From positions 1 through 26,260 of IMG/VR virus record IMGVR_UViG_3300005805_000413: DNA of 26,260 nucleotides, one strand, 5' to 3'. This stretch comes from a virus. Its lineage: Duplodnaviria > Caudoviricetes. The position numbers were made by a program, and so were the translations under genes. The notes beneath the pieces were generated by a model, which was not told where the DNA came from, made no database searches, and saw only the letters and a program-made list of their open reading frames with translations. Shown here piece by piece: positions 3,415 to 25,575 of the stretch. The first letter of the stretch is position 1, and each line of letters starts with the position of its first letter.

Positions 3415-6400
3415 ATGTCTTTTAAATTCGGTCCTCAAACTAAAACTGATGTTAAGGTTGGATACATTGATCCAACCAGGGGATACGTTTCTGGTGTATC
3501 GATATGTGATGCCAATACATATGCTAAAAGTAATCCAGGAACAACTTTTATATTTGTGGATGGTGATGCCAATATAAAATATCTCAATATAAATGAAGTT
3601 AATGAACTAACCGAAAATGATACTGTTTCTTCCACTGATGAATGTGGTGGACTGCAGACTTATGAAGAATGTACCTCTCCGGAGATAGTCTTTTCTGGTG
3701 GTGGTGGAATAGGTGCATACGGAAATCCTGTCGTTGGTGTTGATGGAGCTTTACTTGCAGTTGACTTGGTGAGTGGTGGATTTGGATATCAATATCCCCC
3801 TGTAACAAAGGCAGTTGACAAGTGTCAGATTGGAAATGGCGCTGTTTTACAATCAGTATTGGGAACTGTTGCTGATACTGTAGAGGGTGGAGCTCCGTTT
3901 GAGACTTATGAGGAATGTCCAGGTGATACTGTTGAGTATGGTAGAGTTTATGACCAAGATGGACAAGATGTTGGTGAATGGGATCCTGCAAAATATCTCC
4001 CAATACCTGGAGAAGATCCCATATTAACTGATATTCTAGAGTTTCAACAGTCTCTAAAAAATCCTTGGTGGACTACAAGAGATAATAAACCACTGAGTAT
4101 AACCTCTCAGAGTGAAACTTTCTCATCTAACGATGCTACCTCCCCTCGTTGGAATGATTTTTTAAACAAGTATGCAATTTCTCCAGTAGCTCCATCTGAT
4201 GTTCCTGGAACAGATAATGCTGGAAAGATTTTTATCTTTGAGTGGCAAGAAAATTTCCCAACCACTGGTAATTATGTTTTCAGAACTCTCTGTGATAATA
4301 AAGGAAAATTATACATTGATAATCTTTATGTTTCGGACCTTAACTCAATTGCCAGAAATTTTAATATTGGAGTTATAACAAAAGAAATCCAGGAGGGTAT
4401 TCATACAATAAGGGTTGATTTACTTAATGCCCCAATCTATGAAGTTCAAACAACAACTCCAGGATCTGCCTTCTTTATTAAAAAAGATGGTGAAATATAC
4501 TTGGATCTAACATCCTTCCCACAATCTACAGTGAATGTTACATTCAGTACCTATGCAATTTCTCAGGGTGGTGCTGGTAGAGATCATACAATTGAGTTTG
4601 CTGAACTTATTTTTAAAGATATAAAGGATGTTTCAAATGATAGTGGAACATATGGTGTTCCTGGAGGAGTTCTTCATGGGCCAATTGTTCAAACTGGTGG
4701 TGATCGCTTAGCAATTGTTGAAGGTCGAGCAACAGAAGTTGATAGAGGTATAGAAATTGTTGCATATACTGGTGATAATATTGCCGCTGGTAAAGATGAC
4801 TTCTTTGTTGCTATCGTTGGTGCAGAGTTAGTTGAGCAACCTCAACCAGAAGAAGTTTCTTCGCAGTTGAATTCTTTCGAAACTCAAAACGTTTTCAATA
4901 CAGTTGATTACATTGATAGAGCAGACAGAACTCTTTGGAGAACTGCTTCTAATGTAAGTAGTATTTCAACTCTTTTGAACAGTTATGGAGTTGCTCCTTT
5001 TGATGCTACTACACAGCAATCTAAAACTGATAGTTATCCTGGAACTCATAAAATTGTTTGGAGTGGAGTTACTTTCCCAGTAAATGGGGATTATATTATT
5101 GAATTGGCATCTGACGACGATGCTACTCTTACGATTGGTGGTGTTGTTATTGAACATAAGGGCTTTAGAAGTCCAGGTGTTCCGAATGCAGACTTAACTG
5201 GTGCTTATTATTTTACTGCAGGAACATATGATATAGTAGCAGAACTTTATCAAATTCCTGGAGGAACCACTAGAGGACTTGGTGATGGCAATCCAATGTC
5301 TATCGCTGTTAATATCAATGTCTCTTTTGCACAAGAAAAAGTGCAGTCCAGTTTATCTTGGAATCAAAATCCTATTGGATTTGCTATGGTAATTCAGCAA
5401 CCACCAAGAGCAATACCACAAGAAATTCCTCCAGTTTCTGGCCCTTGTCCACCAAATCCAATATGGAGTACAAGATTTCCTGGATATCAAAATCAATGGT
5501 TCCCTGTAAACTATAGTGAGAGGGAAGCCTGGAGTGATTTTATGAATCGTTATGCACTTTCTCCAGTTCCCCCATTAGAAACTTTTGGAAGTGATGCATC
5601 TGGAATTCAATTTTCAAATAGTTGGAATGTTGAACTTCCTTTTAGAGGGTTTTATGGTGTTCAAGCAACTGCAGATAATGCTGGCAGGGTTCTTATTGAT
5701 GGGATTGAAGTTGCTAAAGCACAATCATATGCGACAGAAACTCCAGAAGTTACTCAAGTATTTTTAGAAGCAGGAACTCATAAAATTGATGTTCAAGTTT
5801 CTAATTATTCTCAGACTTATTCATCTTTAGTCAAACAAAAAATCTTTAGCACAAAAGATTGGAGAAACGTTGATGGTGGAATTGCAGAATCTGTTGAAGT
5901 ATTCTTTAATGTTTCAAATGATAGTCAAACCAGTCTTTCTTTCACTTTTGTAGCAGAAGATGGATCTGATACTTTTACACTGTTAAGTCCAAGTGAGGGA
6001 TTTTCTTCATATACTGAAGTTCGAACAATTAAAGTTGGTAAGAAGTATAAAGTTGTTTCTGGTGGAAATGCTACTAATGAGCAAGGATTGTTGTCTGGCA
6101 GTTCTGAAACTCAAGATCCATCAAATAAAATTTTCGCAGATTATATTGATGGTGAAAATGATAATAATGATTTTGTTGTTGAAGTTACTGAAGGTGTATT
6201 TACCAGTTCCAATAAAAGGTCCATCAGCGATAGTAGAGATACCTTTGATATAACTTTTGAAATTCCCGTTTCTGATGCACCTCGTCTTGATCCAGTGACT
6301 GAGACAAGAAATGGTGTAACCTATGTTGGACCACCTTTGTTCCCATTCAGCCTTACGACTGGAGGAGTGGATGGAACTGGGTGGGGAGATTTTATGAATG

Positions 6401-7443
6401 AGTATTCAATATCTCCAAATGTTTTTGATGAAATTAATCAACCAGATAATAAAATAAATGGGGTTTTTGTATTAGTTTGGAGAGGTGTTTCTTTTCCAGA
6501 AACAGGAACTTATAAGATCAAACTTGCGGCTGATAATGAAGCAGTTTTTAAATCGGATGGAGTTGAAATTACAAGAAGTTCTGATTTTCTGAGTGATGAT
6601 CCTACTGCAATCAATGTTAATTTTAGTGCGGGAAAACACGATCTTGCTATAGAACTACAAAACTTTGCTGATGGTATTGATATTTTTGAAACCAATCCAA
6701 TGGGAGTATCTCTTACGATTGAAAGAGACATAACAGTTTTATCTGAAAATGTTGCTGCTGATTGGGTAGATAATCCTATGGCAATATCGGCAATTTTAAT
6801 TCCTCCTCCATGTATTGTAAAAACTGGCGGAACTGGAGTGGTTGTTGACGTTGTTGTAGAGGATCCTGGAAATGGATATATTGCTCCTCCAGCAGAAGGA
6901 TATCCAGTTTTACTTGAACTTACTGAAGTAATTGTAGAAAATCCTGGAATCAATTATAATTGTGGAGTAGATCAAATACAAATAGTACCTGACTTGGGAG
7001 CAAATCCAACCTACACTTGCGATTCTTTTGGTAGAATTCAAAGTGTTCAGGTTGCTCCAACTGCTGGATATACTTCATATCCATCTATCACCATGCCATC
7101 TACGACTGGTGTTAATGCATCGTTTAGACCAGTCTTTAGAGTTATAAGAGATCCACTGCCCCAACCAGAAGAAATCATTCAGGTTACTGATCTTGTTGGT
7201 CTCAAGCAGACTGGTTATGTTGATGGTAGAGCATACTATGGTGCTGTTTACTATGAGAATGGAATCAGATATGCTGGATACTACAAGACTATTGGAACTC
7301 CAATTCGTGTTTACAATACCTTACAAGAAAGCATCACTGGAGAAGTCACAACAGTTCCAAGTGCAATTCAGAGATCTGGTACTGATATTACAAGTAACGA
7401 TCCAACTCTTAATATTCCAGGAACTCCACAGAACCTTATTTAA
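3415..7443 (+). CDS. Large virion/baseplate protein with four PA14-like beta-sandwich modules (1342 aa)
   Basis: Four repeats of W.DF.N.Y..SP...W...FP..G.Y.....D[DN].......G...G.H.I...L.N, flanked by GGGG.GA / V..PG.GY structural repeats. Confidence 0.7.
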   Translation: MSFKFGPQTKTDVKVGYIDPTRGYVSGVSICDANTYAKSNPGTTFIFVDGDANIKYLNINEVNELTENDTVSSTDECGGLQTYEECTSPEIVFSGGGGIGAYGNPVVGVDGALLAVDLVSGGFGYQYPPVTKAVDKCQIGNGAVLQSVLGTVADTVEGGAPFETYEECPGDTVEYGRVYDQDGQDVGEWDPAKYLPIPGEDPILTDILEFQQSLKNPWWTTRDNKPLSITSQSETFSSNDATSPRWNDFLNKYAISPVAPSDVPGTDNAGKIFIFEWQENFPTTGNYVFRTLCDNKGKLYIDNLYVSDLNSIARNFNIGVITKEIQEGIHTIRVDLLNAPIYEVQTTTPGSAFFIKKDGEIYLDLTSFPQSTVNVTFSTYAISQGGAGRDHTIEFAELIFKDIKDVSNDSGTYGVPGGVLHGPIVQTGGDRLAIVEGRATEVDRGIEIVAYTGDNIAAGKDDFFVAIVGAELVEQPQPEEVSSQLNSFETQNVFNTVDYIDRADRTLWRTASNVSSISTLLNSYGVAPFDATTQQSKTDSYPGTHKIVWSGVTFPVNGDYIIELASDDDATLTIGGVVIEHKGFRSPGVPNADLTGAYYFTAGTYDIVAELYQIPGGTTRGLGDGNPMSIAVNINVSFAQEKVQSSLSWNQNPIGFAMVIQQPPRAIPQEIPPVSGPCPPNPIWSTRFPGYQNQWFPVNYSEREAWSDFMNRYALSPVPPLETFGSDASGIQFSNSWNVELPFRGFYGVQATADNAGRVLIDGIEVAKAQSYATETPEVTQVFLEAGTHKIDVQVSNYSQTYSSLVKQKIFSTKDWRNVDGGIAESVEVFFNVSNDSQTSLSFTFVAEDGSDTFTLLSPSEGFSSYTEVRTIKVGKKYKVVSGGNATNEQGLLSGSSETQDPSNKIFADYIDGENDNNDFVVEVTEGVFTSSNKRSISDSRDTFDITFEIPVSDAPRLDPVTETRNGVTYVGPPLFPFSLTTGGVDGTGWGDFMNEYSISPNVFDEINQPDNKINGVFVLVWRGVSFPETGTYKIKLAADNEAVFKSDGVEITRSSDFLSDDPTAINVNFSAGKHDLAIELQNFADGIDIFETNPMGVSLTIERDITVLSENVAADWVDNPMAISAILIPPPCIVKTGGTGVVVDVVVEDPGNGYIAPPAEGYPVLLELTEVIVENPGINYNCGVDQIQIVPDLGANPTYTCDSFGRIQSVQVAPTAGYTSYPSITMPSTTGVNASFRPVFRVIRDPLPQPEEIIQVTDLVGLKQTGYVDGRAYYGAVYYENGIRYAGYYKTIGTPIRVYNTLQESITGEVTTVPSAIQRSGTDITSNDPTLNIPGTPQNLI

Positions 7444-7449
7444 AATCGT

Positions 7450-7455
7450 TAAATA
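7450..7455 (+). promoter_or_regulatory. Late promoter TAAATA
   Basis: TTAAATA intergenic, upstream of the ATG at 7478. Confidence 0.65.
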
Positions 7456-7477
7456 GTAATATTGAAATTCATTTCAA

Positions 7478-8146
7478 ATGGCAACTGCTGCAAACACTAA
7501 TAACACAAAATTAGCAACAACCCCCAAGGCAGGTAGAGAAGAACTTTTAGCGGACAATATTTCAAAAAATAACACTGCTAAACAAAATTATACTGCCACA
7601 AGACATGGTAATGATCATGGATCAATATCCTTTGGTCATATTCACAAACAAGGCGAATGTGTGTCCGAGGTTCTCCTTCAAGCATCTGATGGAAGACATT
7701 CTATTGTTCTTGATAAAGATGGCCCACGAAAAGGTTCAACTCAAATTACTGCTCCGGGAAGAATAACAATAGATTGTGGTGAAGATTCATCTGAGGGTGA
7801 AAAAACCTTAATGATTCATACTTGGAATGGGGATATAAGTATCGTTGCTAAAACTGGAAGACTCTTACTTCAAGGAACGGATATTGATTTAATAGCAGTT
7901 GGTGAGGGTGGATCTAAAGGAAACATCCGAATGAAAGCAACTGAAACTATTGAGTTGGATGGGAAAAAGGTAATAACAAATGCTAAAAGTCAAATTAAAA
8001 TGTGTTCAAGTGGAAAAGTTGAAGTTGCTGCAAATAGTTGTCTAAACATGTATGGATCTTTGATTAGAGCTGCGACTGACGCAGTAAGTACTAAAGACTC
8101 TAAAGTTGGTGGTAGAAATTTCCAAGTTAAACAAGTTCAATTTTAA
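7478..8146 (+). CDS. gp5 C-terminal-like beta-helical spike protein (222 aa)
   Basis: SDGRHSIVLDKDG followed by short beta-strand repeats (GDISIVAKTGRLLLQGTDIDLIA, GNIRMKATETIELDG); located in the gp5 module. Confidence 0.55.
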   Translation: MATAANTNNTKLATTPKAGREELLADNISKNNTAKQNYTATRHGNDHGSISFGHIHKQGECVSEVLLQASDGRHSIVLDKDGPRKGSTQITAPGRITIDCGEDSSEGEKTLMIHTWNGDISIVAKTGRLLLQGTDIDLIAVGEGGSKGNIRMKATETIELDGKKVITNAKSQIKMCSSGKVEVAANSCLNMYGSLIRAATDAVSTKDSKVGGRNFQVKQVQF

Positions 8147-8157
8147 GGAGAAATAAA

Positions 8158-8817
8158 ATGTCGATGTGTATGGATGACCTGGCAACAGGTGGACAATTGA
8201 TGGTAGGTGCAGGAACACCTCCTATTATGGGTGTTGGGGATGCAAAAATTAATGGTGCTGCTTTTATTGAAGGACCAGCCCAAGTTGGCGCAGCAACACA
8301 ATATTCTACTGTTGATGCTACATTAATGGTTGGTCAGACTTTTAATTCTGATTCTTTGTCTCCTCTTTATTCTCTATGGAGCAAATTTTATTCAAGATTT
8401 CAATATTGGGTTAGAGTTGATTTAGTTTTGAAATCAAAATACATTGAAGCAAAAATTGTAAGAACAAAAGTTTTACAAGCATCAATTAAAAACTTTGTAA
8501 TTGATCACCCAACAGTGCCTGGAAAGAAGTTAGTTCATACTTGTTTAGAGGGTCCTGAAAATGGTGTCTATTATAGAGGTAGATTAAAAGGAAAAGATTA
8601 TATTCAACTTCCCCCATACTGGACAGGATTAGTAGATGATACTACAATAACAGTATCAATTACTCCTGTAGGATCTCATCAAGATATTATCGTGAAGAGA
8701 ATTGGAGACAATAAAATTTATCTACAGGCAAGACCTGGTATTCCAATTGATTGTTTTTACCATGTTTATGGAACAAGAAAAGATGTTGAAAGATTAATTG
8801 TTGAGGTAGAAGAATAA
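8158..8817 (+). CDS. Spike/fibre-associated protein with C-terminal KxFxIxHP-LEGPE domain (219 aa)
   Basis: KNFVIDHP...HTCLEGPENGVYYRG...LP.YW..LVD; SD AAGGAG; paralogous to the next gene. Confidence 0.6.
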   Translation: MSMCMDDLATGGQLMVGAGTPPIMGVGDAKINGAAFIEGPAQVGAATQYSTVDATLMVGQTFNSDSLSPLYSLWSKFYSRFQYWVRVDLVLKSKYIEAKIVRTKVLQASIKNFVIDHPTVPGKKLVHTCLEGPENGVYYRGRLKGKDYIQLPPYWTGLVDDTTITVSITPVGSHQDIIVKRIGDNKIYLQARPGIPIDCFYHVYGTRKDVERLIVEVEE

Positions 8818-9536
8818 TGTCATTTTCATTTGAAAAGTACGGAACGTTTGCTGGCCCAGGAACTCCATTTGACTATAGAGATAATGATGAGTTCAGTTTT
8901 GATGAGGGAACTGAATTTAATTTAACTGATGTCTCTATGTGTCTGGTGAGAACTATTGAGTCTCCTCCTGATTATGTTTACATGCATTTGCAAGGAACTA
9001 ATACCTCAGTTGTTACTTTAGAGAGAAATACTGGACCAATTCCAACTTTTAACGTAGAAGCAAACGATACTAATTTTAGTGGTGATGTGACAGTCATCGG
9101 AACTGTCACTGCTGCTAATTTTGTCGGAACTTGGTATGGAAACACCGTTGGTTCTGTAAAAGCATTTGATATTCAGCATCCATCAAAAGATGGCCATCGC
9201 CTTAGATACATCTGTCTTGAAGGTCCAGAGGCTGAAGTTTACTTAAGAGGGAAGTTGGAAGATCAAACTGTAATTGAACTTCCTGAATACTGGAAAGATC
9301 TTGTTGATGTTGATACTATTGGTGTTTCTCTAACTCCAATTGGAGTCTATCAGGAACTATACGTAGATAAAATTGAATGGGGGCAGAGAATTATTGTAAA
9401 GAATAACTCTGGCGGCCCTATTAAGTGTTCATACGTTGTCTATGGTCAGAGAAAGGATGTGCCAAGGAACATCAGTGAATATGAGGGAACGAGCGCCAAA
9501 GATTATCCTGGAAATATTGCCCCATATACCCCTTGA
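8817..9536 (+). CDS. Spike/fibre-associated protein with C-terminal KxFxIxHP-LEGPE domain (239 aa)
   Basis: KAFDIQHP...YICLEGPEAEVYLRG...LPEYWKDLVD; TAATG overlap with the previous gene. Confidence 0.6.
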   Translation: MSFSFEKYGTFAGPGTPFDYRDNDEFSFDEGTEFNLTDVSMCLVRTIESPPDYVYMHLQGTNTSVVTLERNTGPIPTFNVEANDTNFSGDVTVIGTVTAANFVGTWYGNTVGSVKAFDIQHPSKDGHRLRYICLEGPEAEVYLRGKLEDQTVIELPEYWKDLVDVDTIGVSLTPIGVYQELYVDKIEWGQRIIVKNNSGGPIKCSYVVYGQRKDVPRNISEYEGTSAKDYPGNIAPYTP

Positions 9537-9561
9537 CACCACCACCTCACGGTGCTATGAT
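9533..9561 (+). promoter_or_regulatory. Strong sigma70-type early promoter
   Basis: TTGACA (9533-9538), 17-nt spacer, TATGAT (9556-9561), with extended TG at 9553-9554. Confidence 0.85.
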
Positions 9562-9586
9562 ACTTGGGTAATCAACGGACGACCGA

Positions 9587-9769
9587 ATGCAAGACGAGTA
9601 CCTCTCACGCTGCGTTGTGGATCCTATCAAGCGTACAGTGTATCTGTATTCTAGTGAAGGGTCAGAAAAGCAAGTGACCTGTGAGACCGTGGATGAGTTT
9701 ATGAACGTGCTAGAGTTTGTTCGTGCTACAGTGGGTGAAGAAACTCTCTCATACGCAAATCCACTTTAA
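9587..9769 (+). CDS. Small hypothetical early protein (60 aa)
   Basis: First ORF after the early promoter; protein-like composition; more G/C-ending codons than its neighbours. Confidence 0.75.
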   Translation: MQDEYLSRCVVDPIKRTVYLYSSEGSEKQVTCETVDEFMNVLEFVRATVGEETLSYANPL

Positions 9770-9832
9770 GTTTCATTTTTCGGGGGAAAAAATCCCGGCA
9801 AAAATTTACCCCTATTACTTTTTTGAAAAAGT

Positions 9833-10036
9833 ATGGTTTATAAAATTTCATACAAAGACCTCAAAGAGGAACCAGTCAAGACCACTCCAGAGAATGTAAA
9901 AGAGGCAAATGAAGCACTCTTTTCTGCAAAGTGGAATCTACCTAAAGCAGCAAAGCACTGTGGAATGTCACAAAAAGAAATGAAGTTGACTTTCTGGGAG
10001 TATATCAAGTATAATCCTACTACTTACCAAGCGTAA
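9833..10036 (+). CDS. Small hypothetical protein (67 aa), possibly HTH-like
   Basis: Co-oriented ORF; NLPKAAKHCGMSQKEMK resembles a helix-turn-helix. Confidence 0.7.
   Translation: MVYKISYKDLKEEPVKTTPENVKEANEALFSAKWNLPKAAKHCGMSQKEMKLTFWEYIKYNPTTYQA
9986..10015 (+). promoter_or_regulatory. Sigma70-type promoter upstream of tRNA-Leu, inside the 67-aa ORF
   Basis: TTGACT (9986-9991), 18-nt spacer, TATAAT (10010-10015); tRNA starts at 10044. Confidence 0.65.
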
Positions 10037-10043
10037 GTTTTTT

Positions 10044-10128
10044 GGGAGCGTGGCGGAATCGGTAGACGCACCGGACTTAAAATCCGTTGGGAGTAAATCC
10101 TGTGGGGGTTCAAGTCCCCCCGCTCCTA
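10044..10128 (+). tRNA. trnL: tRNA-Leu(UAA), intron-less, no encoded CCA
   Basis: Acceptor GGGAGCG/CGCTCCT; D-arm GGCGGAATCGGTAGACGC; anticodon loop CT-TAA-AA (TAA 10078-10080); long variable arm; T-loop GTTCAAGTC; discriminator A. Confidence 0.95.
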
Positions 10129-10136
10129 TCACTCCA

Positions 10137-10142
10137 TAAATA
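10137..10142 (+). promoter_or_regulatory. Late promoter TAAATA
   Basis: CATAAATA between tRNA-Leu and the ATG at 10164. Confidence 0.6.
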
Positions 10143-10163
10143 ATCCAAGTATGGGGTAAACCC

Positions 10164-10433
10164 ATGAAATACAGAATTGATGCCAGATATGTTTGGTACA
10201 ATCGTGGAACTCAAATTGTTCTCATGTATTTCATAAATCAAATTCCATTTACTTTTGATGATGTTCCAGATGATGGTCTTTATGATCTAAGTTTGATTGA
10301 AATAGCAGATGGCGAAAGAAGATTTGAACCAGAAGATCTCTATCAAGCATCATATTACTTAATGCTTGAAGAATGTCATCCTCTCATGTTTGAATTGGAT
10401 CTGGAAAATCCAGAAATGCTGCCTGTTGATTAA
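10164..10433 (+). CDS. Acidic hypothetical protein (89 aa)
   Basis: ORF fills the space between the two tRNAs and is preceded by a late promoter and a GGGG SD-like tract. Confidence 0.75.
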   Translation: MKYRIDARYVWYNRGTQIVLMYFINQIPFTFDDVPDDGLYDLSLIEIADGERRFEPEDLYQASYYLMLEECHPLMFELDLENPEMLPVD

Positions 10434-10434
10434 T

Positions 10435-10506
10435 GCCCTTGTAGCTCAGTGGTAGAGCGCGGCTTTTGTAAAGCCGATGTCGCTGGTTCAAATCCAGTCG
10501 GGGGCT
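10435..10506 (+). tRNA. trnT: tRNA-Thr(UGU), no encoded CCA
   Basis: Acceptor GCCCTTG/CGGGGGC; D-arm GCTCAGTGGTAGAGC; anticodon stem CGGCT/AGCCG with loop TT-TGT-AA (TGT 10467-10469); T-loop GGTTCAAATCC. Confidence 0.95.
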
Positions 10507-10524
10507 TGAGTTTACAAAACTCCA

Positions 10525-10728
10525 ATGTCACTCATTTCACAAAAAGATAGAGAACTCGCAATAACTGCTATTTCTCATTATGTTGACTTTTTGAAAAGCG
10601 AAATTGAATTTTTTGAAGCTGAAAATCTTTTAGATGACCCAGAATACCTTGATTATGCCTCAGAATTGCCAGAAGTTCATGCTCTTCTCAACTGGATCCG
10701 ATTGGAGCATTTCAAACATGAAAATTAA
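10525..10728 (+). CDS. Hypothetical helical protein (67 aa)
   Basis: Co-oriented ORF, tightly packed after tRNA-Thr. Confidence 0.7.
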   Translation: MSLISQKDRELAITAISHYVDFLKSEIEFFEAENLLDDPEYLDYASELPEVHALLNWIRLEHFKHEN

Positions 10729-10891
10729 TCTCTGGTACTGTAAAGATATGAAGCAGTGGCGTTGGGTTCTTACTGACGATTCACGTCCTATTGTAAAACA
10801 AGAGTCTGGTCAACAACCATTTCTTCGTGATGCTATGAACGATGTAGCAAATACGGTAGAATACATGATGGAATGCAAGCAATCTGAATGA
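10718..10891 (+). CDS. Hypothetical protein (57 aa, MKINLWYCKDMKQWRWVL...), weakly YegP/DUF1508-like
   Basis: Start moved from 10634 to the ATG at 10718, leaving only an 11-nt overlap; ATGA overlap with the next gene. Confidence 0.65.
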   Translation: MKINLWYCKDMKQWRWVLTDDSRPIVKQESGQQPFLRDAMNDVANTVEYMMECKQSE

Positions 10892-11496
10892 AGTCCGACT
10901 TTTATATTGATAAAGTCTCCAAAAAACAAGCAGAAGACCTTTTACTTCAATATCATTATCTAAAGGACATCTCCAAATCCTTCAAAAGTGGTTATAATTA
11001 TGGATTGTTTAAACACAATGACTTCTCCCCACTGAATATTGGTGGTGTTTTGGGAGTATGTATTTTTACTGGATTACCTGTACCTGAAATTGCGAAAGGG
11101 GCATTTGAACTTGAAAGACACGAACAACAAGGACTCTTTGAACTCTCAAGACTTTGCATTGAACCTAGCACGCAGTCATGCGAATATAACATCACTTCTT
11201 GGTTTGTGTCACAGGCGATTAGACAATTTCGCAGAGATACTGAAGTTAAAGCAATCCTTTCTTATGCTGATTCAGATTACCATTCTGGTACAATTTATCG
11301 TGCTTGTAACTTTAAATATTACGGTCTCACAGACCCTAAAAAAGATTTCTATTATTCAGACGGAACTAAACACTCTCGTGGAAAAGTAAAGGGTGAAGAA
11401 GGAGAATGGAAAGAACGTAGTCGCAAGCATAGATACTTGATGTTGTTTGACAAAGATCTTAAAAAACGCTTGACATGGGAAGAAGTAAAGTGGTAA
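10888..11496 (+). CDS. mom: Mom-like GNAT-fold DNA modification protein (202 aa)
   Basis: HYL...GVCIF...ELSRLC...SWFVSQAIR...ILSYAD...H.GTIYRACNF.Y.G...KHRY matches motifs of the phage Mu Mom family. Confidence 0.8.
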   Translation: MKSDFYIDKVSKKQAEDLLLQYHYLKDISKSFKSGYNYGLFKHNDFSPLNIGGVLGVCIFTGLPVPEIAKGAFELERHEQQGLFELSRLCIEPSTQSCEYNITSWFVSQAIRQFRRDTEVKAILSYADSDYHSGTIYRACNFKYYGLTDPKKDFYYSDGTKHSRGKVKGEEGEWKERSRKHRYLMLFDKDLKKRLTWEEVKW

Positions 11497-11499
11497 AAT
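11470..11499 (+). promoter_or_regulatory. Sigma70-type promoter in the last codons of the mom-like gene
   Basis: TTGACA (11470-11475), 18-nt spacer, TAAAAT (11494-11499), extended TG at 11491-11492. Confidence 0.75.
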
Positions 11500-11504
11500 A
11501 AGAT

Positions 11505-11554
11505 GGTGTGAAGGAAGTGCGAAAGAGGAGGTCTAAATAGATCTCCTCTTTTTT
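11505..11554 (+). ncRNA. Candidate ~50-nt small RNA with a Yfr1-complementary 5' region
   Basis: Bounded by a near-consensus promoter and an intrinsic terminator; no ORF inside; 5' GGTGTGAAGGAAGTG. Confidence 0.55.
11522..11554 (+). terminator. Intrinsic terminator closing the early island
   Basis: AAAGAGGAGGTCT-AAAT-AGATCTCCTCTTT: 13-bp stem with one G-U pair, running into T6 (11549-11554). Confidence 0.85.
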
Positions 11555-11567
11555 CGTATGATAAATA
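11534..11567 (+). promoter_or_regulatory. Two late promoters (TAAATA at 11534-11539 and 11562-11567)
   Basis: CTAAATA across the terminator loop and ATAAATA downstream of it, both before the ATG at 11599. Confidence 0.65.
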
Positions 11568-11598
11568 ATCCATAACGGAAACTATAAGCATTAATAAG

Positions 11599-14500
11599 AT
11601 GGGTCTCTCCAGATTAGATAATTTTCTGAAATCAATTCGTGGAACAATCCTCTACGTTAATCCGAATGATTTAGATGCAACGGATAGTATTGACAATCAA
11701 GGAAACTCTTTAACACGTCCATTTAAGACGATTCAAAGAGCTCTTGTTGAGGCATCAAGATTTTCATATCAAAGAGGTCTCAATAATGATAGATTTAACA
11801 AGACCACGATTCTTTTATATCCTGGAGATCATATAGTAGATAACCGTCCAGGGTGGATTCCTGATGGTGCCAATAATTTTAGACTTAGAAATGGTTTAAA
11901 TTCTAGTAATTTTTCTGCGTGGGATTCTGATACTAATTTCAACGTAGAATCTGAAGATAATGCTCTCTATAAGTTAAATTCTATTCACGGTGGAGTTATT
12001 GTTCCAAGGGGAACTTCCATCGTTGGTTTAGATTTACGTAAGACAAAAATAAGACCAAAATACGTACCAAATCCAACAAATGATAATATTGAAAAATCAA
12101 CTATCTTTAGAGTAACTGGAGGATGTTATTTTTGGCAGTTTTCACTGTTTGATGCTGATCCAAACGGATTCTGCTATACTGACTATACCTCAAATACTTT
12201 CGTTCCTAATTTCTCTCATCACAAATTAACTTGTTTTGAGTATGCGGATGGTGTTAATGACGTATCAATTAAAGATGAGTTTTATCCAGCTGGATTAAAA
12301 TATGATCGCACAGATCTGGATATGTATTATGAAAAAGTTGGACTGTGCTATGGAACTTCTAGTGGACGTGCTATTGAACCAGACTACCCATCTACTGGTG
12401 TTGATATTCAACCAAAGATTGATGAATATCGTATTGTTGGATCCACTGGACTTTCTGTAGGTATTAGCAGTATTCGTGCTGGAGATGGTGTAACAGCAAC
12501 GACTACCATAACTGTAACTACTCTTACTACAGTTCCTGGACTTGATGTTGATACTCCTTTCAGAATTGAGGGGGTTTCTGCGGCAGGATACAACGGACAG
12601 TTTGTTGTATATGAAAGAACTAGTGATACTCAAATAGTTTATCAAACACAAACTACACCAACTAACGCACTCCCCTCTGTGACTGGAGCTACGTTATCTC
12701 TAAACTCTGATACTGTAACATCTGCTTCGCCTTACATTTTTAATATATCTCTACGTTCTGTTTATGGAATGTGTGGTATTCTTGCTGATGGTGCAAAGGC
12801 TGATGGATTTAAATCCATGGTTGTTGCCCAATTTACTGGAATCGGATTACAAAAAGATGATAATGCTTTTGTTCTTTACAACAGTTCAACCGGTGCTTAT
12901 GAAGACTCCACTGTTGCTGGTAATGAAACAATAAGTACAAATTCAAGGTCACTATTTAAACCAGAATATAAAAATTTCCACATTAAAGCAGTAAATGATG
13001 CGTTCATTCAAAACGTGTCTATTTTTGCTATTGGTTATGCTGAACAGTTTGTTGTTGAAAGTGGTGGTGACATGTCAGTCACCAACTCAAACTCAAATTT
13101 TGGTGCAAAAGCACTTGTTGCTGATGGATTCAGAACAAATGCGTTTTCTCAAGATGACTTGGGTTATATAACTCACATTATTCCACCAAAAGAAATTCCT
13201 GTTGGCGAAAAGACAATTGAATTTAACGCAATAGACGTAAACAAGACTGTAGGAGTTGCTTCTACAGGACACCTTTATCTGTATGCACAAACCAATATAG
13301 ATTTTCCTCCAGAAAATGTTATTGATGGATATCGTTTTGGTGCTAAAGAAAATGATACCCTGAATGTTTTAATTTCGGCTGGATCCACAACATCTGAGTA
13401 TAGTTCAAGAGTTGTGATGCCAAATTCTCAAAGTAGTTCTGAGAAATCTTTTAATGTTGTTTCCAGATCATCAAATACTCTAACCTTTGGTTCAGTCCAT
13501 ACTTTCATTAATGGCGAATCAATTAGAATTTTAAGTGCTGATGGAAGTCTTCCTGATGGAATTCTTCCCAATAAAGTTTACTATGCTATTGCTGGAGCTA
13601 CTGGCATTGGTAGCACTCAAATCAAAGTAGCTCAGACACAAACAGATGCCTTAGCATATAGTACTTCAAATCTTACCAACATTTCCTTCAATACAAGAGG
13701 CGGTGCTCTAAAGGTTGTTTCTAGAGTATCCGATAAAAACTCTGGAGATATTGGTCACCCAGTTCAATATGACCCAACAAATAGTCAGTGGTATGTAAAA
13801 GTATCCACTTCTGCGACTGACAATACAATTTATTCTACTATAGTTGGTTTTGGATCAACCTCTCTTGGAGACGCAACATCAAGAACTTATATTAAACGTG
13901 TGCCCGATGACAGAAGTGGTTCTGATGTCATTTATCGTGTAAGGTATGTAATTCCTGCTCAGAGTGGTGGATCTTACGCAAGACCTCCAAGTGATGGATT
14001 TATTATTCAAGAATCTAATACATCTATAGGAGCAACCACTTCAGAAATTCAAAGTTATTTTGGTAATGATGGAACAGTAATAACAAATGAGAACCAATTA
14101 AGAAATCCTAGATTCATTGCTAACGCAACATGGTCTGGTGGAGTTGCAAATGTCGTTACTGAGTTACCTCACAATCTATCTGTCGGATCTCAAGTTCAAA
14201 TTGTTAATATACTAAGTGTTAACAATCCTACTGGTGTTGGAAATTCTGGATTTAATGGAGTTTATTCGGTAAGTGGAATTTCTAGTGCAAAGCAGTTTAG
14301 CGTTGGAATTACTACAGATCCTGGAGTTTTCTTAAATAACACCGCTATTAGAGATACATCCCTCCCATACTTTAAGAGAAAGAGATACTCCAATACTTAC
14401 TATGCTTATAGAACACAAGAAGTTCAACCCTATATTTCTGGACAACAGGACGGAATTTATTATCTAACGGTTGTCAATTCTTCTAATTCTCCTACGGTTG

Positions 14501-17481
14501 CTCCATTTACCGCAGAAAAATATTCACAACCGGTAAAAGAACTTTATCCTCAATCAAATAGAGACAATCCACTATCAGATCCTAGAGAAACAATTTCTTA
14601 TGCTAGCGCATCTCCTGTTGGAGAAGTTATAGTCAATGACGTAAGAAACAGTCTTACTAGAGAAACCATTACAAAGATCTTAAAAGATACTGACGTTGGT
14701 GTTGGTATTACTAATATTGTTTCAACATCAACAACGTCTCATGTAATTCATACTTCTATTGATCATGGATTCAATAGAATTATGAAAGTAGGTGTTACCA
14801 GCACTGGATCTGCTTATGGTGTTGGATCTGGAAGCACTGAAACGTACTACAATGCGAGACTTGTTGGATTTGCTGGGTCTATCACAGGACAAAATGCAAC
14901 AGCAAAAGTTACTGTCAGCCCAACAGGAAACATCTCCGAAATTCATATTATGGATGGAGGAAGTGCGTATGGCATTGGAAACACTCTTTCAGTTGTCGGA
15001 ATTGCTACAACAACCGGTCATGTTCCTGGTTATGTAACAGTATCTAAAATTTATAATAATGTTGGAGATTCTGTTAGAGTATCTGGCGTATCCTCAGATA
15101 CCACTCAAGTTTATAATACTCTTTATAGAGTAACAAATGTCTCTGTTGGATTTGCTAAGACCTTCTCAGTAATTTCACAATCTGCGATAGGCATTGCTAC
15201 GACTTCTGGTGTTGTGTCATCAGTTCTTGCCAATTCTATTGTTTACTCTACTGGAGAATCATTAAGAGTTATCTCTTTAGTCTATGATAATGTAAGTGGA
15301 ATAGCAACAATTACCACGTCAAATAATCATGGACTAAAAGTAAATAATAAGATTCGTATAGCAGGTGCAGATCAAAATCTTTATAATGGATCATTTGTAA
15401 TCAATCAAAACATATCATTAACCTCATTCTCTGTTGTGATTGGTGTTTCTACAACAGCACCAGTCGCTACTGGAACAATCTATGTCTATCGTGAAGGTGT
15501 GACTTCTAACGGTGGATTTATTACTGTTGAAGATGAAAATATTAGTGGAAGAATGGTCCACCAATATGCTGGAATTACTACCACTTTGGGATCCTTAGTT
15601 CCTGATGCAATAACTGATCAACTTTATGTAACTAATATTGAAAATCTTGATATTAAGATTGGAGATTATCTTCAAATTGATGAGGAGATTGTCAGGGTAA
15701 AACAAAAAGTTCCTGTAAACATTCCTCCAGGTGATCCAATTTATGTTTTCAGGGGAGCAGTTGGAACAAAAGCTTCTTCACACATTAATAGCAGTGTTGT
15801 AAGAAAAATACAAGTTAATCCAGTTGAACTTAGAAGACACTCAATTATTCGTGCTTCTGCTCATACTTTTGAATATGTTGGATTTGGTCCAGGAAACTAT
15901 TCAACAGCACTACCTGAAAAACAAGACAGACAAATTAGTGAGCAAGAAGAACTACTTGGACAATCTACCAGAAGAGAAGCTGGAATAAACTTCTATACTG
16001 GTATGAATGATAAAGGTATTTCATACTCTGGTAATAAGAAGTTAAGTACAGTTACGGGACAAGAAGAAATTTTTGATACTCCTATTCAAACTGTTACTGG
16101 TGAAGATATTGGAAACCGTAAAGGAATTAATGTTCTTAATCCTTTAGAAGTTATTGCTACTCGTTCAATTCAAGTTGAAGGTGATTCTGATGGCAAAGCA
16201 ACTTCTCAATTTAATGGACCCGTTATCTTTACTAATAAGATAACTTCAACTTCAGAAAAAGGTGTTGAGGCAAGTTCTCTATATCTTCAAGGAAATGCAA
16301 CTGTATCTAGAAAATATACAGTTGGAGTCTCTGTACCAACACTTTCAGGAAACCCAGGTGATATTGTTTACTATACAGACCCATCTGAAGGTGATCATGT
16401 TGGTTGGATTTATACAATTGAAAATTCTTGGAAGAGATTTGGTCCTATTAGTTTGAATTCAAATTCAAATACATACACGTTTGACTCTGTTGGTATTGCG
16501 ACCACGACTCCTGGAGATCTTAAGTTTAAAGTTGGATCTGGATCTTCTCAATTCTCAATTGATTCTATTGGAGTTGGTATTGGCACAACTTCAAGTGGGT
16601 ATGATTTAAATGTAAATGGAACCACAAATCTTTCTGGTGCGGTTTCTATTGGTGGATCGGTAACTACTTCTAATATTTTCTATGGTGATGGAAGTGGTTT
16701 AAGTAACTTAAATGCTTCCGCTCTTGGTTGGACTGTAGTGAGTAATGGAATTCATAATACAACACCCACCACAAAAAATGTTGGTATTGGAACAACAAAT
16801 CCAACCGCAGCTAAGTTGATTGTTGGTGCAGTTGGAGCAACGGGTCAAAGTTTAATTGTAAATGGTAGATCATATTTTGTTGGTATTGTTACGGTTAGTG
16901 GAGCAACAGACGTTCTTGGTAGATTTACTTCTACAAATTTCAGACTTGACAATCCAACCTTAAGTGGTGTTATTCGTTGCGGAGTTCTTACAACTGCTAT
17001 TCTTTCAGTTGGTGCTGCGGGCACAGTATTTAATACTTTTGGTAATAATGCTGGTGTTGGAACACAGATTCCAAGAGCAAAACTTGATATTGAGGGGCAC
17101 AGTAGAATTAAAACTTTTGCTCAACCTCTCATATCTGCATCAAGTGCCTCTAATGTTGTAACTCTTAATCTTTCTAATGGATCATTCTTTGAACATACTC
17201 TAGTTCAAAATGTCACTTCCTTTGTATTAACTCAAACTCCAACTGGAGCTCCTGTTTACACATTCACTTTGAAAATTACTCAAGGAAGCACAGGAAACTT
17301 TACAGCAAATCTAGATAACTTCTTAAACGCAACAGGAACCGCAATTCCAATTTATTGGCCAGCAGGTGGTGTTATTCCAATTGTTACTCCAATCGCAGAA
17401 AGAACTGATATTTACTCCTTCACTTCTTATGATGAAGGACTGAGTTACTATGCGGTTGTTGTTGGACAGAACTTCACTTAA
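11599..17481 (+). CDS. Large virion structural/tail fibre protein (1960 aa)
   Basis: LYV....D.....G.S..RPFKTIQRA N-terminus typical of beta-helix virion proteins; T..HGL..G..I.I.G...YNG repeats; VGIGTT.P repeats; C-terminal L.NG.FF...WP....P...RTDIYSF domain. Confidence 0.75.
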   Translation: MGLSRLDNFLKSIRGTILYVNPNDLDATDSIDNQGNSLTRPFKTIQRALVEASRFSYQRGLNNDRFNKTTILLYPGDHIVDNRPGWIPDGANNFRLRNGLNSSNFSAWDSDTNFNVESEDNALYKLNSIHGGVIVPRGTSIVGLDLRKTKIRPKYVPNPTNDNIEKSTIFRVTGGCYFWQFSLFDADPNGFCYTDYTSNTFVPNFSHHKLTCFEYADGVNDVSIKDEFYPAGLKYDRTDLDMYYEKVGLCYGTSSGRAIEPDYPSTGVDIQPKIDEYRIVGSTGLSVGISSIRAGDGVTATTTITVTTLTTVPGLDVDTPFRIEGVSAAGYNGQFVVYERTSDTQIVYQTQTTPTNALPSVTGATLSLNSDTVTSASPYIFNISLRSVYGMCGILADGAKADGFKSMVVAQFTGIGLQKDDNAFVLYNSSTGAYEDSTVAGNETISTNSRSLFKPEYKNFHIKAVNDAFIQNVSIFAIGYAEQFVVESGGDMSVTNSNSNFGAKALVADGFRTNAFSQDDLGYITHIIPPKEIPVGEKTIEFNAIDVNKTVGVASTGHLYLYAQTNIDFPPENVIDGYRFGAKENDTLNVLISAGSTTSEYSSRVVMPNSQSSSEKSFNVVSRSSNTLTFGSVHTFINGESIRILSADGSLPDGILPNKVYYAIAGATGIGSTQIKVAQTQTDALAYSTSNLTNISFNTRGGALKVVSRVSDKNSGDIGHPVQYDPTNSQWYVKVSTSATDNTIYSTIVGFGSTSLGDATSRTYIKRVPDDRSGSDVIYRVRYVIPAQSGGSYARPPSDGFIIQESNTSIGATTSEIQSYFGNDGTVITNENQLRNPRFIANATWSGGVANVVTELPHNLSVGSQVQIVNILSVNNPTGVGNSGFNGVYSVSGISSAKQFSVGITTDPGVFLNNTAIRDTSLPYFKRKRYSNTYYAYRTQEVQPYISGQQDGIYYLTVVNSSNSPTVAPFTAEKYSQPVKELYPQSNRDNPLSDPRETISYASASPVGEVIVNDVRNSLTRETITKILKDTDVGVGITNIVSTSTTSHVIHTSIDHGFNRIMKVGVTSTGSAYGVGSGSTETYYNARLVGFAGSITGQNATAKVTVSPTGNISEIHIMDGGSAYGIGNTLSVVGIATTTGHVPGYVTVSKIYNNVGDSVRVSGVSSDTTQVYNTLYRVTNVSVGFAKTFSVISQSAIGIATTSGVVSSVLANSIVYSTGESLRVISLVYDNVSGIATITTSNNHGLKVNNKIRIAGADQNLYNGSFVINQNISLTSFSVVIGVSTTAPVATGTIYVYREGVTSNGGFITVEDENISGRMVHQYAGITTTLGSLVPDAITDQLYVTNIENLDIKIGDYLQIDEEIVRVKQKVPVNIPPGDPIYVFRGAVGTKASSHINSSVVRKIQVNPVELRRHSIIRASAHTFEYVGFGPGNYSTALPEKQDRQISEQEELLGQSTRREAGINFYTGMNDKGISYSGNKKLSTVTGQEEIFDTPIQTVTGEDIGNRKGINVLNPLEVIATRSIQVEGDSDGKATSQFNGPVIFTNKITSTSEKGVEASSLYLQGNATVSRKYTVGVSVPTLSGNPGDIVYYTDPSEGDHVGWIYTIENSWKRFGPISLNSNSNTYTFDSVGIATTTPGDLKFKVGSGSSQFSIDSIGVGIGTTSSGYDLNVNGTTNLSGAVSIGGSVTTSNIFYGDGSGLSNLNASALGWTVVSNGIHNTTPTTKNVGIGTTNPTAAKLIVGAVGATGQSLIVNGRSYFVGIVTVSGATDVLGRFTSTNFRLDNPTLSGVIRCGVLTTAILSVGAAGTVFNTFGNNAGVGTQIPRAKLDIEGHSRIKTFAQPLISASSASNVVTLNLSNGSFFEHTLVQNVTSFVLTQTPTGAPVYTFTLKITQGSTGNFTANLDNFLNATGTAIPIYWPAGGVIPIVTPIAERTDIYSFTSYDEGLSYYAVVVGQNFT

Positions 17482-17495
17482 TTTGGAGATAAGTC

Positions 17496-19127
17496 ATGGG
17501 ATTTAAGCAAACAACTTTAGACCTTAACGGTCCTATTTTATCATTTACTCTCCATCCAGTTTCAACGACTGCTGCCAATGCTGGAATTGCTACGTTTATT
17601 GGAATTGCGACCGCTACTTTCCCAACACAATCTCCTACAAATCCAGCAACTAATACTGGTTCTATATCATATCGTTGGTATGATTCAAATGGTCCATTGA
17701 GTGATGGAACAAATATAACTGGGTCCGCAACAACAACTCTTACTCTATCAAATGTTGTAAATCCCACTGATAATGGACGTTCTCTTTATTTGAAAGCAGA
17801 TTATACGCCATCAGCATATGGTATAAGTCCAATTACTGTTGGTACAGCTAGATCTACAGGTAATGCAGTTAATGATCCAATTGATTCTAATTCGGCAGTA
17901 TTAACGGTTTATCCATCACTTTCTATTATAACACAACCAACTTCAAAGACTATATCACAAACAAGAACAGAAACATTTACTGTACTTGGAACAGCAACTG
18001 ATGGTTCAGCAGTCTCATATCAGTGGTACATTAATGGAGTTGCTGTTTCTAACGGATCAAATTCAATCAGTGGTTCTACCTTTACTGTTTCTGGAGCAAC
18101 AACTTCAACTCTATCAGTCTCCTCCACTGCAACAGGATCTTATAGTGTTACGGCAACTATTACACATCCCACGGCAGATAATTCGCCACTAACAAGCAGT
18201 GCTGCAACATTTACTGTTGTTTCCGCAAGGCAAATTGTTAATGTTGAGTTGACATCATCTGACGGTGGCAACGCAACTTTATATTCTTGGAATTTATTTG
18301 ATCAAGGTTCATTTAGCATAGGTCCATCACAGGTTCCCCAAGGAAATATTATGTCTTTTTATGCTCCAGAATCAGACATTGATGTGTATTTGGACTTAAC
18401 AGCAAATTCTGGAACAGATTATGGGAGTTATAGGGGCGGTCAAGGAGGAAAGTCTACAATTAGATTGACACTTAAAAAAAATGAAGAATATGTAATTACA
18501 TCAATATCTCAAGCAAATGATGGTAGTGCGATTTATTTTTATAAAAAATCCAGATTGGTTGCTGTTGTTGGTGGTGGAGGAAATGCTGGAACTAAAGGAA
18601 ATGGTGGAGCGGGAGGTGGAATAAATGTGGCTGGAGAGAATGGATTTGGTACTGGTGCTGGTGCTGGTGGAATACTTTATGCTGCAGGTACTTTACCATC
18701 AACTGGAATTTTTGGATCCAGTTTAGACAATAGTAGTGTTGTTAAGGCTGGAGATAGTCAAGCAATTGCTCCCAATCCAGGAAGAGTTCTTCCTTGCCCA
18801 AGAGGAGATTATTGGTATAATATTGGAATTAGTGCGTGTGCAGATTTGGGAAATATTCAACTTTATGTACCATCCGGAAGTGTAGTTAGAAACAGCGCAG
18901 TGATTTCAAGAGGTTTTAAGATGGGTTATGGTATTCGTAACAATTCCGGTAAAGGTTTAAATGGCGGTGGAAATGGTGGTAATGGTGGTGCGGGTGGTGC
19001 GGGTGGTAATGGCGGCGGTGGCGGCGGCGGAGGGTCTGGATATACTGATGGATCTGTAACTATAGTATCAACTCAACTGGGTGGAAATACTGGTAGTGGA
19101 AAAATTGTAATTAGGAGTGCTGTATAA
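17496..19127 (+). CDS. Putative adhesin: two Ig-like domains plus a glycine-rich domain (543 aa)
   Basis: Two P....A/TF...SY.WY...GA/SATT.TL Ig-like repeats; VVGGGG.AG...GG.GGG and GGGGGGGSGY glycine-rich motifs; SD GGAG. Confidence 0.7.
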   Translation: MGFKQTTLDLNGPILSFTLHPVSTTAANAGIATFIGIATATFPTQSPTNPATNTGSISYRWYDSNGPLSDGTNITGSATTTLTLSNVVNPTDNGRSLYLKADYTPSAYGISPITVGTARSTGNAVNDPIDSNSAVLTVYPSLSIITQPTSKTISQTRTETFTVLGTATDGSAVSYQWYINGVAVSNGSNSISGSTFTVSGATTSTLSVSSTATGSYSVTATITHPTADNSPLTSSAATFTVVSARQIVNVELTSSDGGNATLYSWNLFDQGSFSIGPSQVPQGNIMSFYAPESDIDVYLDLTANSGTDYGSYRGGQGGKSTIRLTLKKNEEYVITSISQANDGSAIYFYKKSRLVAVVGGGGNAGTKGNGGAGGGINVAGENGFGTGAGAGGILYAAGTLPSTGIFGSSLDNSSVVKAGDSQAIAPNPGRVLPCPRGDYWYNIGISACADLGNIQLYVPSGSVVRNSAVISRGFKMGYGIRNNSGKGLNGGGNGGNGGAGGAGGNGGGGGGGGSGYTDGSVTIVSTQLGGNTGSGKIVIRSAV

Positions 19128-19128
19128 C

Positions 19129-19134
19129 TAAATA
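19129..19134 (+). promoter_or_regulatory. Late promoter CTAAATA
   Basis: Immediately after the stop at 19127. Confidence 0.7.
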
Positions 19135-19167
19135 TTTAAAATACAACTCGGGGGAGAGTGAACCCAA

Positions 19168-25352: not shown

Positions 25353-25356
25353 AATC

Positions 25357-25362
25357 TAAATA
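25357..25362 (+). promoter_or_regulatory. Late promoter CTAAATA
   Basis: Directly abuts the terminator hairpin. Confidence 0.65.
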
Positions 25363-25386
25363 AGGGGGTATACACCCCCTTTTTTT
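25363..25386 (+). terminator. Intrinsic terminator
   Basis: AGGGGGT-ATAC-ACCCCCT followed by TTTTTT, then the ATG at 25387. Confidence 0.8.
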
Positions 25387-25575
25387 ATGTCTGAAGATGA
25401 TTTGAAATCAGTAATCGCAGCTTATCAGCAAAAAGCATTTGAACTTTTCAATCAAAATATTGTGTTGGAAACTCAAGTTAAAGGTTTAACTTCTAAAGTT
25501 GAACAACTTCGTTTGGAAAATGAGAAATTGAAAGCAGCAAAATCCAGAAAAAAACCAGACGAAGATTTTTCTTAA
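25387..25575 (+). CDS. Small coiled-coil protein (62 aa)
   Basis: Heptad pattern LETQVKGLTSKVEQLRLENEKLK; has its own late promoter. Confidence 0.75.
   Translation: MSEDDLKSVIAAYQQKAFELFNQNIVLETQVKGLTSKVEQLRLENEKLKAAKSRKKPDEDFS

Follow-up and report, generated by a model that had tools for sequence, protein, structure and literature searches.

What can a virus express from a promoter that points at a strong terminator only about 50 nt later? The question is raised by a locus in a 26-kb viral record (26,260 nt, analysed whole and hereafter called the window), whose proteins match the tail, baseplate, and tail-fibre families of T4-type phages. The closest named relatives of the region are the Synechococcus phages Bellamy and S-SM2, a kinship from which we infer that the host is a picocyanobacterium. 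An earlier note on this DNA had proposed an early phage sRNA that titrates Yfr1, a small RNA of cyanobacteria. The sRNA gene stands, as a conserved promoter-motif-hairpin unit; Yfr1 as its main target probably does not, since the host tRNA-Val(CAC) fits better.

A promoter, a motif, and a hairpin upstream of the tail fibre gene

The unit lies downstream of tRNA-Leu(TAA) and tRNA-Thr(TGT) and is followed by the gene of a tail fibre protein, which is also its downstream neighbour in Bellamy and S-SM2. The features of the region are the following:

10888..11496, plus strand: gene of a Mom-like DNA modification protein, 202 aa (phrog_1384, E 1.2e-34); upstream neighbour, outside the unit
11470..11499, plus strand: predicted sigma70-type promoter, -35 TTGACA, extended TG, -10 TAAAAT (11/12 matches)
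11506..11521, plus strand: antisense motif, the exact reverse complement of nucleotides 22-37 of the host tRNA-Val(CAC)
11521..11554, plus strand: intrinsic terminator predicted by folding, with a 14-bp hairpin, an AAAT loop, and six T; sequence variable among relatives
11560..11567, plus strand: GATAAATA, T4 late-promoter-like site 3' of the terminator, kept in relatives and putatively serving the tail fibre gene
11599..17481, plus strand: gene of the tail fibre protein, 1960 aa (phrog_529); downstream neighbour

The promoter is as the earlier note had described it, with TTGACA at 11470-11475, a spacer of 18 nt, TG at 11491-92, and TAAAAT at 11494-11499. Three sites with 11/12 matches occur within 5000-20000, this one among them, and promoter-like sites overall show no enrichment (43 observed vs 51.4 in shuffles). 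Across 11 aligned sequences from the same slot, no change affects TTGAC or the T-A...T of the -10 box. The spacing observed in the family makes G11506, roughly the seventh base beyond the -10 box, the probable transcription start. Two further sigma70-like promoters with 11/12 matches were observed in the window at 9533-9561 and 9986-10015. The second precedes tRNA-Leu(TAA), in a leader from which the motif is missing in the window, while some relatives seem to have the anti-tRNA motif in the leader before tRNA-Leu(TAA).

In the predicted fold of 11504-11554, at -19.7 kcal/mol (z -4.14; 0/200 shuffles equally good), the 5' part stays unpaired and a 14-bp hairpin forms at 11521-11552. Six T at 11549-11554 end the hairpin, in agreement with the strong terminator of the earlier note. 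A simple terminator scan did not list this hairpin. Among 17 sequences, two-sided changes affect 6 of the 13 consensus pairs, and the loop, AAAT in the window, is unconserved. The hairpin is thus stable, followed by a T-run, and keeps its pairs through sequence change, which makes it a predicted intrinsic terminator. Sequence and folding together identify the unit as a predicted conserved and self-contained small-RNA gene, in which conservation centres on the unpaired 5' end. No Rfam family covers it. Cyano-1 gave no match at E up to 1 in the window and none in 20 related loci at the gathering score, where only tRNAs scored at or above that threshold; wcaG, manA, PhotoRC-II, abiF, and glnA gave no match at the gathering score in the window or in related loci.

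Promoter and Mom-like gene share sequence, namely the final codons of the gene and its stop, whose TAA forms the start of the -10 box (window 11455-11499). In S-SM2 and Bellamy the unit is present behind another gene and the Mom-like gene is absent from the slot; therefore, the unit is not a by-product of the Mom-like reading frame. Many Mom-like homologs are sited elsewhere and have a different C-terminus which, together with this absence, suggests that the gene is mobile and acquired its tail from the promoter. Two other candidate products were set aside: a 79-codon minus-strand reading frame spanning the unit (11352-11591), where relatives have indels of various lengths, and a minus-strand, tRNA-sense decoy transcript, the minus strand having no promoter-like site between 11453 and 12007.

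Elsewhere in the window, we observed a hairpin between A and T runs at 25351-25400, after a 767-aa gene, with a weak STnc50 match (E 0.13), probably an ordinary terminator. There are also tandem repeats of coding type with periods of 63 nt and 18 nt at 21053-21617 and 25999-26259, in or near fibre-like genes.

The motif is complementary to the host tRNA-Val(CAC)

The case for Yfr1 was correctly drawn in its details. The triplets ATG-GTG-TGA occupy 11503-11511 and GTGTGAAGGAAGT occupies 11506-11518; the conserved Yfr1 11-mer is as the earlier note gave it (in the part of PMC2190773 available), the flanks given there fit the Yfr1 of Cyanobium and Synechococcus, and a pairing of the motif to Yfr1 with two bulges can be drawn. 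The two A's drawn as bulges against Yfr1 are nevertheless paired bases in an uninterrupted 16-bp match to tRNA-Val(CAC). The gene of this tRNA has 72 nt and an anticodon beginning at 33; positions 11506-11521 pair with the 3' side of its D stem, the 5' strand of its anticodon stem, and its whole anticodon loop.

We searched for the target of the 15-mer 11506-11520 in a sample of 151 genomes from the family of a Cyanobium MAG. It is present in 108 of them, once in 107 and twice in 1, whereas the reversed control 15-mer is present in 0/151. ARAGORN classed 28 of 30 fetched host loci as tRNA-Val(cac), and the remaining two are copies of this gene truncated at the end of a contig. One family genome has a diverged tRNA-Val(CAC) (L713:1501-1572), differing in the anticodon stem, that would mismatch the motif; the sequence of this tRNA is otherwise near-invariant in the family, and the diverged copy is possibly an escape variant or belongs to a distant lineage.

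For the segment 11505-11522, the duplex with tRNA-Val(CAC) has a predicted energy of -31.7 kcal/mol, compared with -21.0 for the next-best of the 31 host tRNAs tested and -25.0 for Yfr1. When the costs of opening are included, the values become -18.4 kcal/mol for the tRNA and -11.9 to -15.7 for four Yfr1 RNAs, and co-folding with a start at 11505 gives -16 for the tRNA and -13 to -20 for Yfr1. These models leave out the tertiary structure and the modifications of the tRNA, and energy alone does not decide between the two partners.

We also observed that the Yfr1 11-mer itself reads like the anticodon arm of tRNA-Val(CAC) (L485:1479-1550) minus two U. The 5' end of a host Yfr2 also binds both RNAs about equally in duplex folding (-22.1 kcal/mol for tRNA-Val(CAC) vs -23.3 for Yfr1). 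Yfr1 may mimic tRNA-Val(CAC), or Yfr2 may also touch this tRNA.

The motif heads many predicted transcription units in viral genomes

The exact 15-mer GGTGTGAAGGAAGTG occurs at about 160 viral loci. Among the 119 of these that were listed, a promoter-like site stands just upstream on the strand of the motif (antisense) in 61 and on the tRNA-sense strand in 3; many of the remaining loci are chance matches in coding sequence. A sigma70-type promoter followed by the 11-mer GTGTGAAGGAA was found in about 490 viral stretches, beyond chance: the matched control, an 11-mer against the host tRNA-Val(GAC) behind the same kind of promoter, gave 4.

We fetched 120 of these stretches, which contain 103 unique elements. 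In more than half (53), the motif is followed directly by phage tRNA genes (41 Gly-TCC, 8 Leu-TAA, 4 Leu-TAG). Of the others, 19 close with a hairpin and a T-run as in the window, 26 have a hairpin only, and 5 have neither. In a further 85 stretches the motif stands behind the T4 late-type ATAAATA, so that calling the RNA early was too narrow; the T4-type late consensus is given as TATAAAT in the available part of PMC3037559. Some elements precede open reading frames. The motif heads a predicted transcription unit in several unrelated genomic places, and it is kept relative to its flanks while hairpin and spacer vary freely. In model phages the unit is found at 119,421 in Syn9 and at 22,968 in S-SM2.

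At five loci, the conserved leader is longer, and additional hairpins separate the motif from the first phage tRNA; the leaders tested have no Rfam match at the gathering score. None of the sequencing runs listed is recorded as RNA; two of them, both DNA-like, contain only relatives at about 85-95% identity, and in one contig 70 other letters replace the unit.

Family variation follows tRNA-Val(CAC)

The pairing partners make different predictions for bases that the search patterns did not constrain. A count of 77/77 matches to the tRNA is partly circular, the search patterns being themselves complementary to it. At positions -3 to -1, the tRNA predicts T,C,C and Yfr1 predicts G,T,G. The 31 unique elements with a long 5' part have T, C, and C in 97%, 100%, and 100% of cases, in columns outside the search pattern, with the caveat that TCC could also be kept for pairing with GGA inside the RNA; the same positions are unconstrained in the 72 elements with a short 5' part. 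The elements behind late promoters (n=62) have AGTG at frequencies of 0.90/0.90/0.90/0.65, again in unsearched columns that follow the tRNA.

The slot after the Mom-like gene provides a second line of evidence because, in related phages, it holds other payloads, first found by synteny alone. In payloads starting with GGCGATAC and ending with CCCTTCCGTGTGACTT, the matches to tRNA-Val(CAC) fall on its acceptor strand and its 3' anticodon strand; in those starting with GACGATAC, they fall on the acceptor strand, on the T arm, and on the anticodon loop. Among 11 distinct payloads anchored by a promoter, 10 have Val(CAC) as best partner among the 31 host tRNAs, at -39.9 to -47.8 kcal/mol, and bind Yfr1 weakly (-11.5 to -16.3 kcal/mol), retaining only 6-7 bases of the Yfr1 match. 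The eleventh looks like chance. When the payload patterns were searched, a promoter was present in only 16 of 120 matches, and the rest were dropped as chance. Two variants after the Mom-like gene have GTGTGC in place of GTGTGA, i.e., one mismatch to the anticodon loop.

The converse search gave a different picture. A perfect complement of Yfr1 stands behind a promoter in 24 viral stretches, which by eye are mostly ribosome-binding sites before open reading frames; none of them has, by eye, the promoter-motif-hairpin layout. Family variation, same-slot payloads, and the host range described below all follow tRNA-Val(CAC), and on these grounds Yfr1 is probably not the main target.

Host range and codon use

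Among named phages, the unit is present in 10 of the 18 with Synechococcus hosts (Bellamy, S-SM2, SynMITS9220M01, S-B05, S-SKS1, S-CAM9, Syn9, Syn19, S-SM1, and S-SRM01, the last counted as positive despite one extra A in the motif) and in 0 of the 11 isolated on Prochlorococcus (Fisher p 0.0035, a value that overstates independence because the 29 phages were selected by hand and are relatives of one another). For the last nine phages, the search used a single exact 10-mer. Exact matches to the 11-mer or to the TCC pattern in P-TIM68, P-SSM7, P-SSM2, S-PM2, and S-RSM4, as well as second matches in Bellamy, S-SM1, S-SKS1, and SynMITS9220M01, did not count as positives, since on visual inspection they do not have the promoter-motif-hairpin layout. 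By the patterns used, 8 of the 18 Synechococcus phages are without the unit, including S-PM2, S-CAM1, and S-CRM01.

The tRNA 15-mer is present in 102 of the 110 family genomes of at least 2.0 Mb vs 6 of the 41 smaller ones, which, judging from their size, are presumably mostly Prochlorococcus; in four small genomes the best matches are only Val(gac) or Val(tac). Yfr1, in contrast, is present in Prochlorococcus.

Carriers tend to bring a valine tRNA of their own: tRNA-Val(TAC) is present in six of the seven checked, and none was seen in the S-SKS1 loci fetched. The non-carriers S-PM2, S-CAM1, and S-CRM01 also have Val(TAC), so the link between carrying the unit and Val(UAC) is one-way. The Val(UAC) of the four carriers tested pairs with the RNA at -9.6 to -21.6 kcal/mol, vs -31.7 for the host Val(CAC).

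GUG accounts for 44 of the 674 valine codons in the window (6.5%), and for 52% and 62% of valine codons in 100-kb samples of two host-family genomes. Whole-genome counts gave a GUG share of 0.11 and 0.13 in two carriers and of 0.07-0.14 in 11 non-carriers, i.e., no extra avoidance in carriers, and other G-ending codons are equally rare in these phages. Codon use therefore does not explain the choice of tRNA-Val(CAC). We also scanned 20-kb pieces of 13 phage genomes with 11-mers against 40 tRNAs of one host and found no promoter-terminator unit against any other host tRNA. The scan returned only the Val(CAC) units of S-SM2 and Syn9, plus four single matches (Tyr, Thr, His, Pro) that were rejected, as they look coding or have no terminator.

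Proposed mechanism

The sequences show the promoter-motif-hairpin layout and the exact complementarity, both conserved across hundreds of T4-like cyanophage contigs. Considering these data together, we think it probable that the unit encodes an RNA of about 49 nt that binds and disables tRNA-Val(CAC), the GUG reader of the host; confidence that this tRNA is the selected partner is higher than confidence in the mechanism as a whole. The host sigma70 polymerase would start at about G11506 and stop at the T-run. The 5' GUGUGAA of the RNA would first pair with the open anticodon loop, and the RNA would then invade the anticodon stem and the D stem until 16 bp are formed. A tRNA-Val(CAC) bound in this way would be unable to decode GUG, would probably not be charged, and may be degraded. 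Host genes, rich in GUG, would lose more than phage genes, poor in it, and valine and its synthetase would be freed for the valine tRNAs that the phage uses, including its own tRNA-Val(UAC). The available part of PMC11726456 reports that the alternative reader Val(UAC) is below detection in Synechococcus WH5701; the loss of the GUG reader would thus be sharper in such hosts.

In front of a phage tRNA cluster, an equivalent short RNA would be set free from the motif-bearing leader by 5' processing, and the leader position would couple the removal of a host tRNA to the supply of phage tRNAs. The position of many members behind late promoters, which is late for host shut-off, counts against the explanation as a whole, as do the equal GUG use of carriers and non-carriers, the lack of units against other host tRNAs in the 13 genomes scanned, and the 8 Synechococcus phages that are without the unit by the patterns used. 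The late copies would suggest that valine is reallocated during virion synthesis as much as in an early shut-off.

Alternative explanations

The alternative that survives best is counter-defence, in which the RNA would hide or remove a tRNA-Val(CAC) that a host anti-phage system senses, cuts, or needs. It draws on the same complementarity as a bias of translation and would explain why there is a single tRNA target and why carriers and non-carriers use GUG equally; moreover, tRNA levels decide the infection of Synechococcus WH5701 by Syn9 (PMC11726456, in the part available). However, pairing over the anticodon would disable the tRNA anyway, and we consider this explanation unlikely.

We rate as quite unlikely that the RNA is a Yfr2-like sponge titrating the host Yfr1/Yfr10, alone or as a second activity. 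Yfr2 does bind Yfr1 through nearly complementary motifs, according to the part of PMC6778093 available, the Yfr1 motif is single-stranded and easily reached, and the net binding of the phage RNA to Yfr1 is predicted at -12 to -16 kcal/mol, or -13 to -20 in co-folding. In addition, a natural Prochlorococcus copy of Yfr2 has the same extra A after GTGTGA, so a bulged duplex with Yfr1 is natural and a second activity on Yfr1 is possible. Yet the unsearched flanks follow the tRNA, the other payloads of the slot keep little of the Yfr1 match, none of the 24 perfect complements of Yfr1 behind a promoter has, by eye, the layout of the unit, Rfam returns no Cyano-1 (Yfr2) match, and the unit is absent from the 11 Prochlorococcus phages although their hosts have Yfr1.

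The RNA could instead act in cis, as a 5' leader that stabilises or controls its own transcript, either through the Shine-Dalgarno-like AAGGAAGUG or as a tRNA-binding attenuator. The motif does resemble a Shine-Dalgarno sequence, and about half of the 103 elements lead straight into phage tRNA genes, with some others preceding open reading frames. This is improbable: in the window and in 19 of the 103 elements, only a hairpin and its T-run come after the motif, leaving nothing else to stabilise, the paired segment shares only one base with the terminator, the tail fibre gene has its own late-promoter site, and the other payloads keep the tRNA match while having no Shine-Dalgarno-like part.

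It is very improbable that the motif is a piece of a host tRNA gene captured by recombination and now functionless. Cyanophage tRNA genes do lie near rearranged regions and may serve as recombination substrates (PMC3037559, in part), but a relic would not keep its motif while hairpin and spacer change freely, nor head transcription units in several unrelated places in the antisense orientation (61 loci vs 3), and nothing alike exists for the sister tRNA-Val(GAC).

Finally, a minigene of the start-stop or Met-Val-stop kind (ATG-GTG-TGA, 11503), trapping tRNA on ribosomes like minigene or CreT toxins, can hardly be credited: the three codons are present and CreT RNAs sequester tRNAs through mini-ORFs (10.64898/2026.06.02.729485, in the part available), but the ATG lies 3 bases past the -10 box, upstream of the likely start, it is not conserved and has no ribosome-binding site upstream, and decoding needs 3 bases, not a 16-base match.

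Comparison with known systems

A close architectural parallel to the proposed anti-tRNA unit is Yfr2 (Rfam Cyano-1, RF01701; PMC6778093, in part), likewise a short RNA with a conserved unpaired 5' GUGUG motif followed by a hairpin, and likewise acting on another non-coding RNA by base pairing, as proposed here for the phage unit. The 5' motif of the phage unit may pair with the Yfr1 11-mer through two bulges, and natural copies of Yfr2 also have a bulge, but the variation within the phage family follows the tRNA. The phage unit differs in being phage-encoded and without an Rfam match, in having a motif that is the perfect complement of tRNA-Val(CAC) and not of Yfr1, and in a hairpin of free sequence, whereas host Yfr2 loci have a conserved GAAAC-containing loop of the GGAAAC(A) type.

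Phages also encode anti-sRNA sponges, such as AgvB and AsxR. The unit shares with phage sRNAs and sponges (SprY; review PMC12197685, as far as available) its own promoter and terminator, a short conserved seed, and a host RNA as target, but here the target is a tRNA, and the conservation of the seed is better explained by tRNA-Val(CAC) than by a host sRNA. In the main text of this review, 'tRNA' at the start of a word occurs 0 times, and the cyanophage RNAs named in the part available are only CfrI, abiF, wcaG, manA, and glnA.

Conflicts centred on single host tRNA species are known from T4: in T4 infection, host tRNA-Leu(CAG) is cleaved and the vs protein modifies valyl-tRNA synthetase. An anticodon nuclease also cuts tRNA-Lys during T4 infection (PMC4810235, in the part available). 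These effects are protein-based and involve no antisense RNA. CreT (10.64898/2026.06.02.729485), in the description available, resembles the proposed RNA in its small size, its stable hairpin, and the depletion of a single tRNA; it works through a Shine-Dalgarno sequence and a mini-ORF on the ribosome and acts on rare tRNAs, whereas the phage RNA would form a direct 16-base duplex with the tRNA that reads an abundant host codon, and its unit has an unconserved ATG with no Shine-Dalgarno sequence before it. Finally, tRNA-tRNA heterodimers in E. coli, in which LysT sequesters ArgU (10.64898/2026.09.02.748885, in part), show that the sequestration of a tRNA by a complementary RNA is chemically feasible in cells. 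Both partners are host tRNAs there, while here the RNA would come from a dedicated viral gene that is not a tRNA.

In the literature searched, which covered few subscription journals, no description of a phage RNA complementary to a host tRNA came to light. If the proposed reading is true, the unit would be a naturally occurring antisense RNA that inhibits a tRNA, a class of target not found there for viral small RNAs.

Implications for the phages and their hosts

As a general statement about the family, we lean towards the view that T4-like cyanophages of Synechococcus have a dedicated anti-tRNA gene, with three or more designs, each directed at another face of tRNA-Val(CAC). Such a gene would rewire the tRNA pool by a strand-invasion capture that begins at the anticodon loop, the phage supplying its own, escaping tRNA-Val(UAC). 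Cyanomyoviruses are described as adding AT-reading tRNAs to the pool of the host (PMC3152331, in the part available), and the supply and levels of tRNAs decide between infection and resistance when Syn9 meets Synechococcus WH5701 (PMC11726456, likewise in part). If our reading is true, removing a GC-reading tRNA from the host would be the hitherto missing counterpart to the tRNA supply by phages. The unit is carried by model phages with cultured hosts and is thus directly testable, and it would offer a natural blueprint for switching off one particular tRNA in cyanobacteria. It would also represent a new way for viruses to take over translation.
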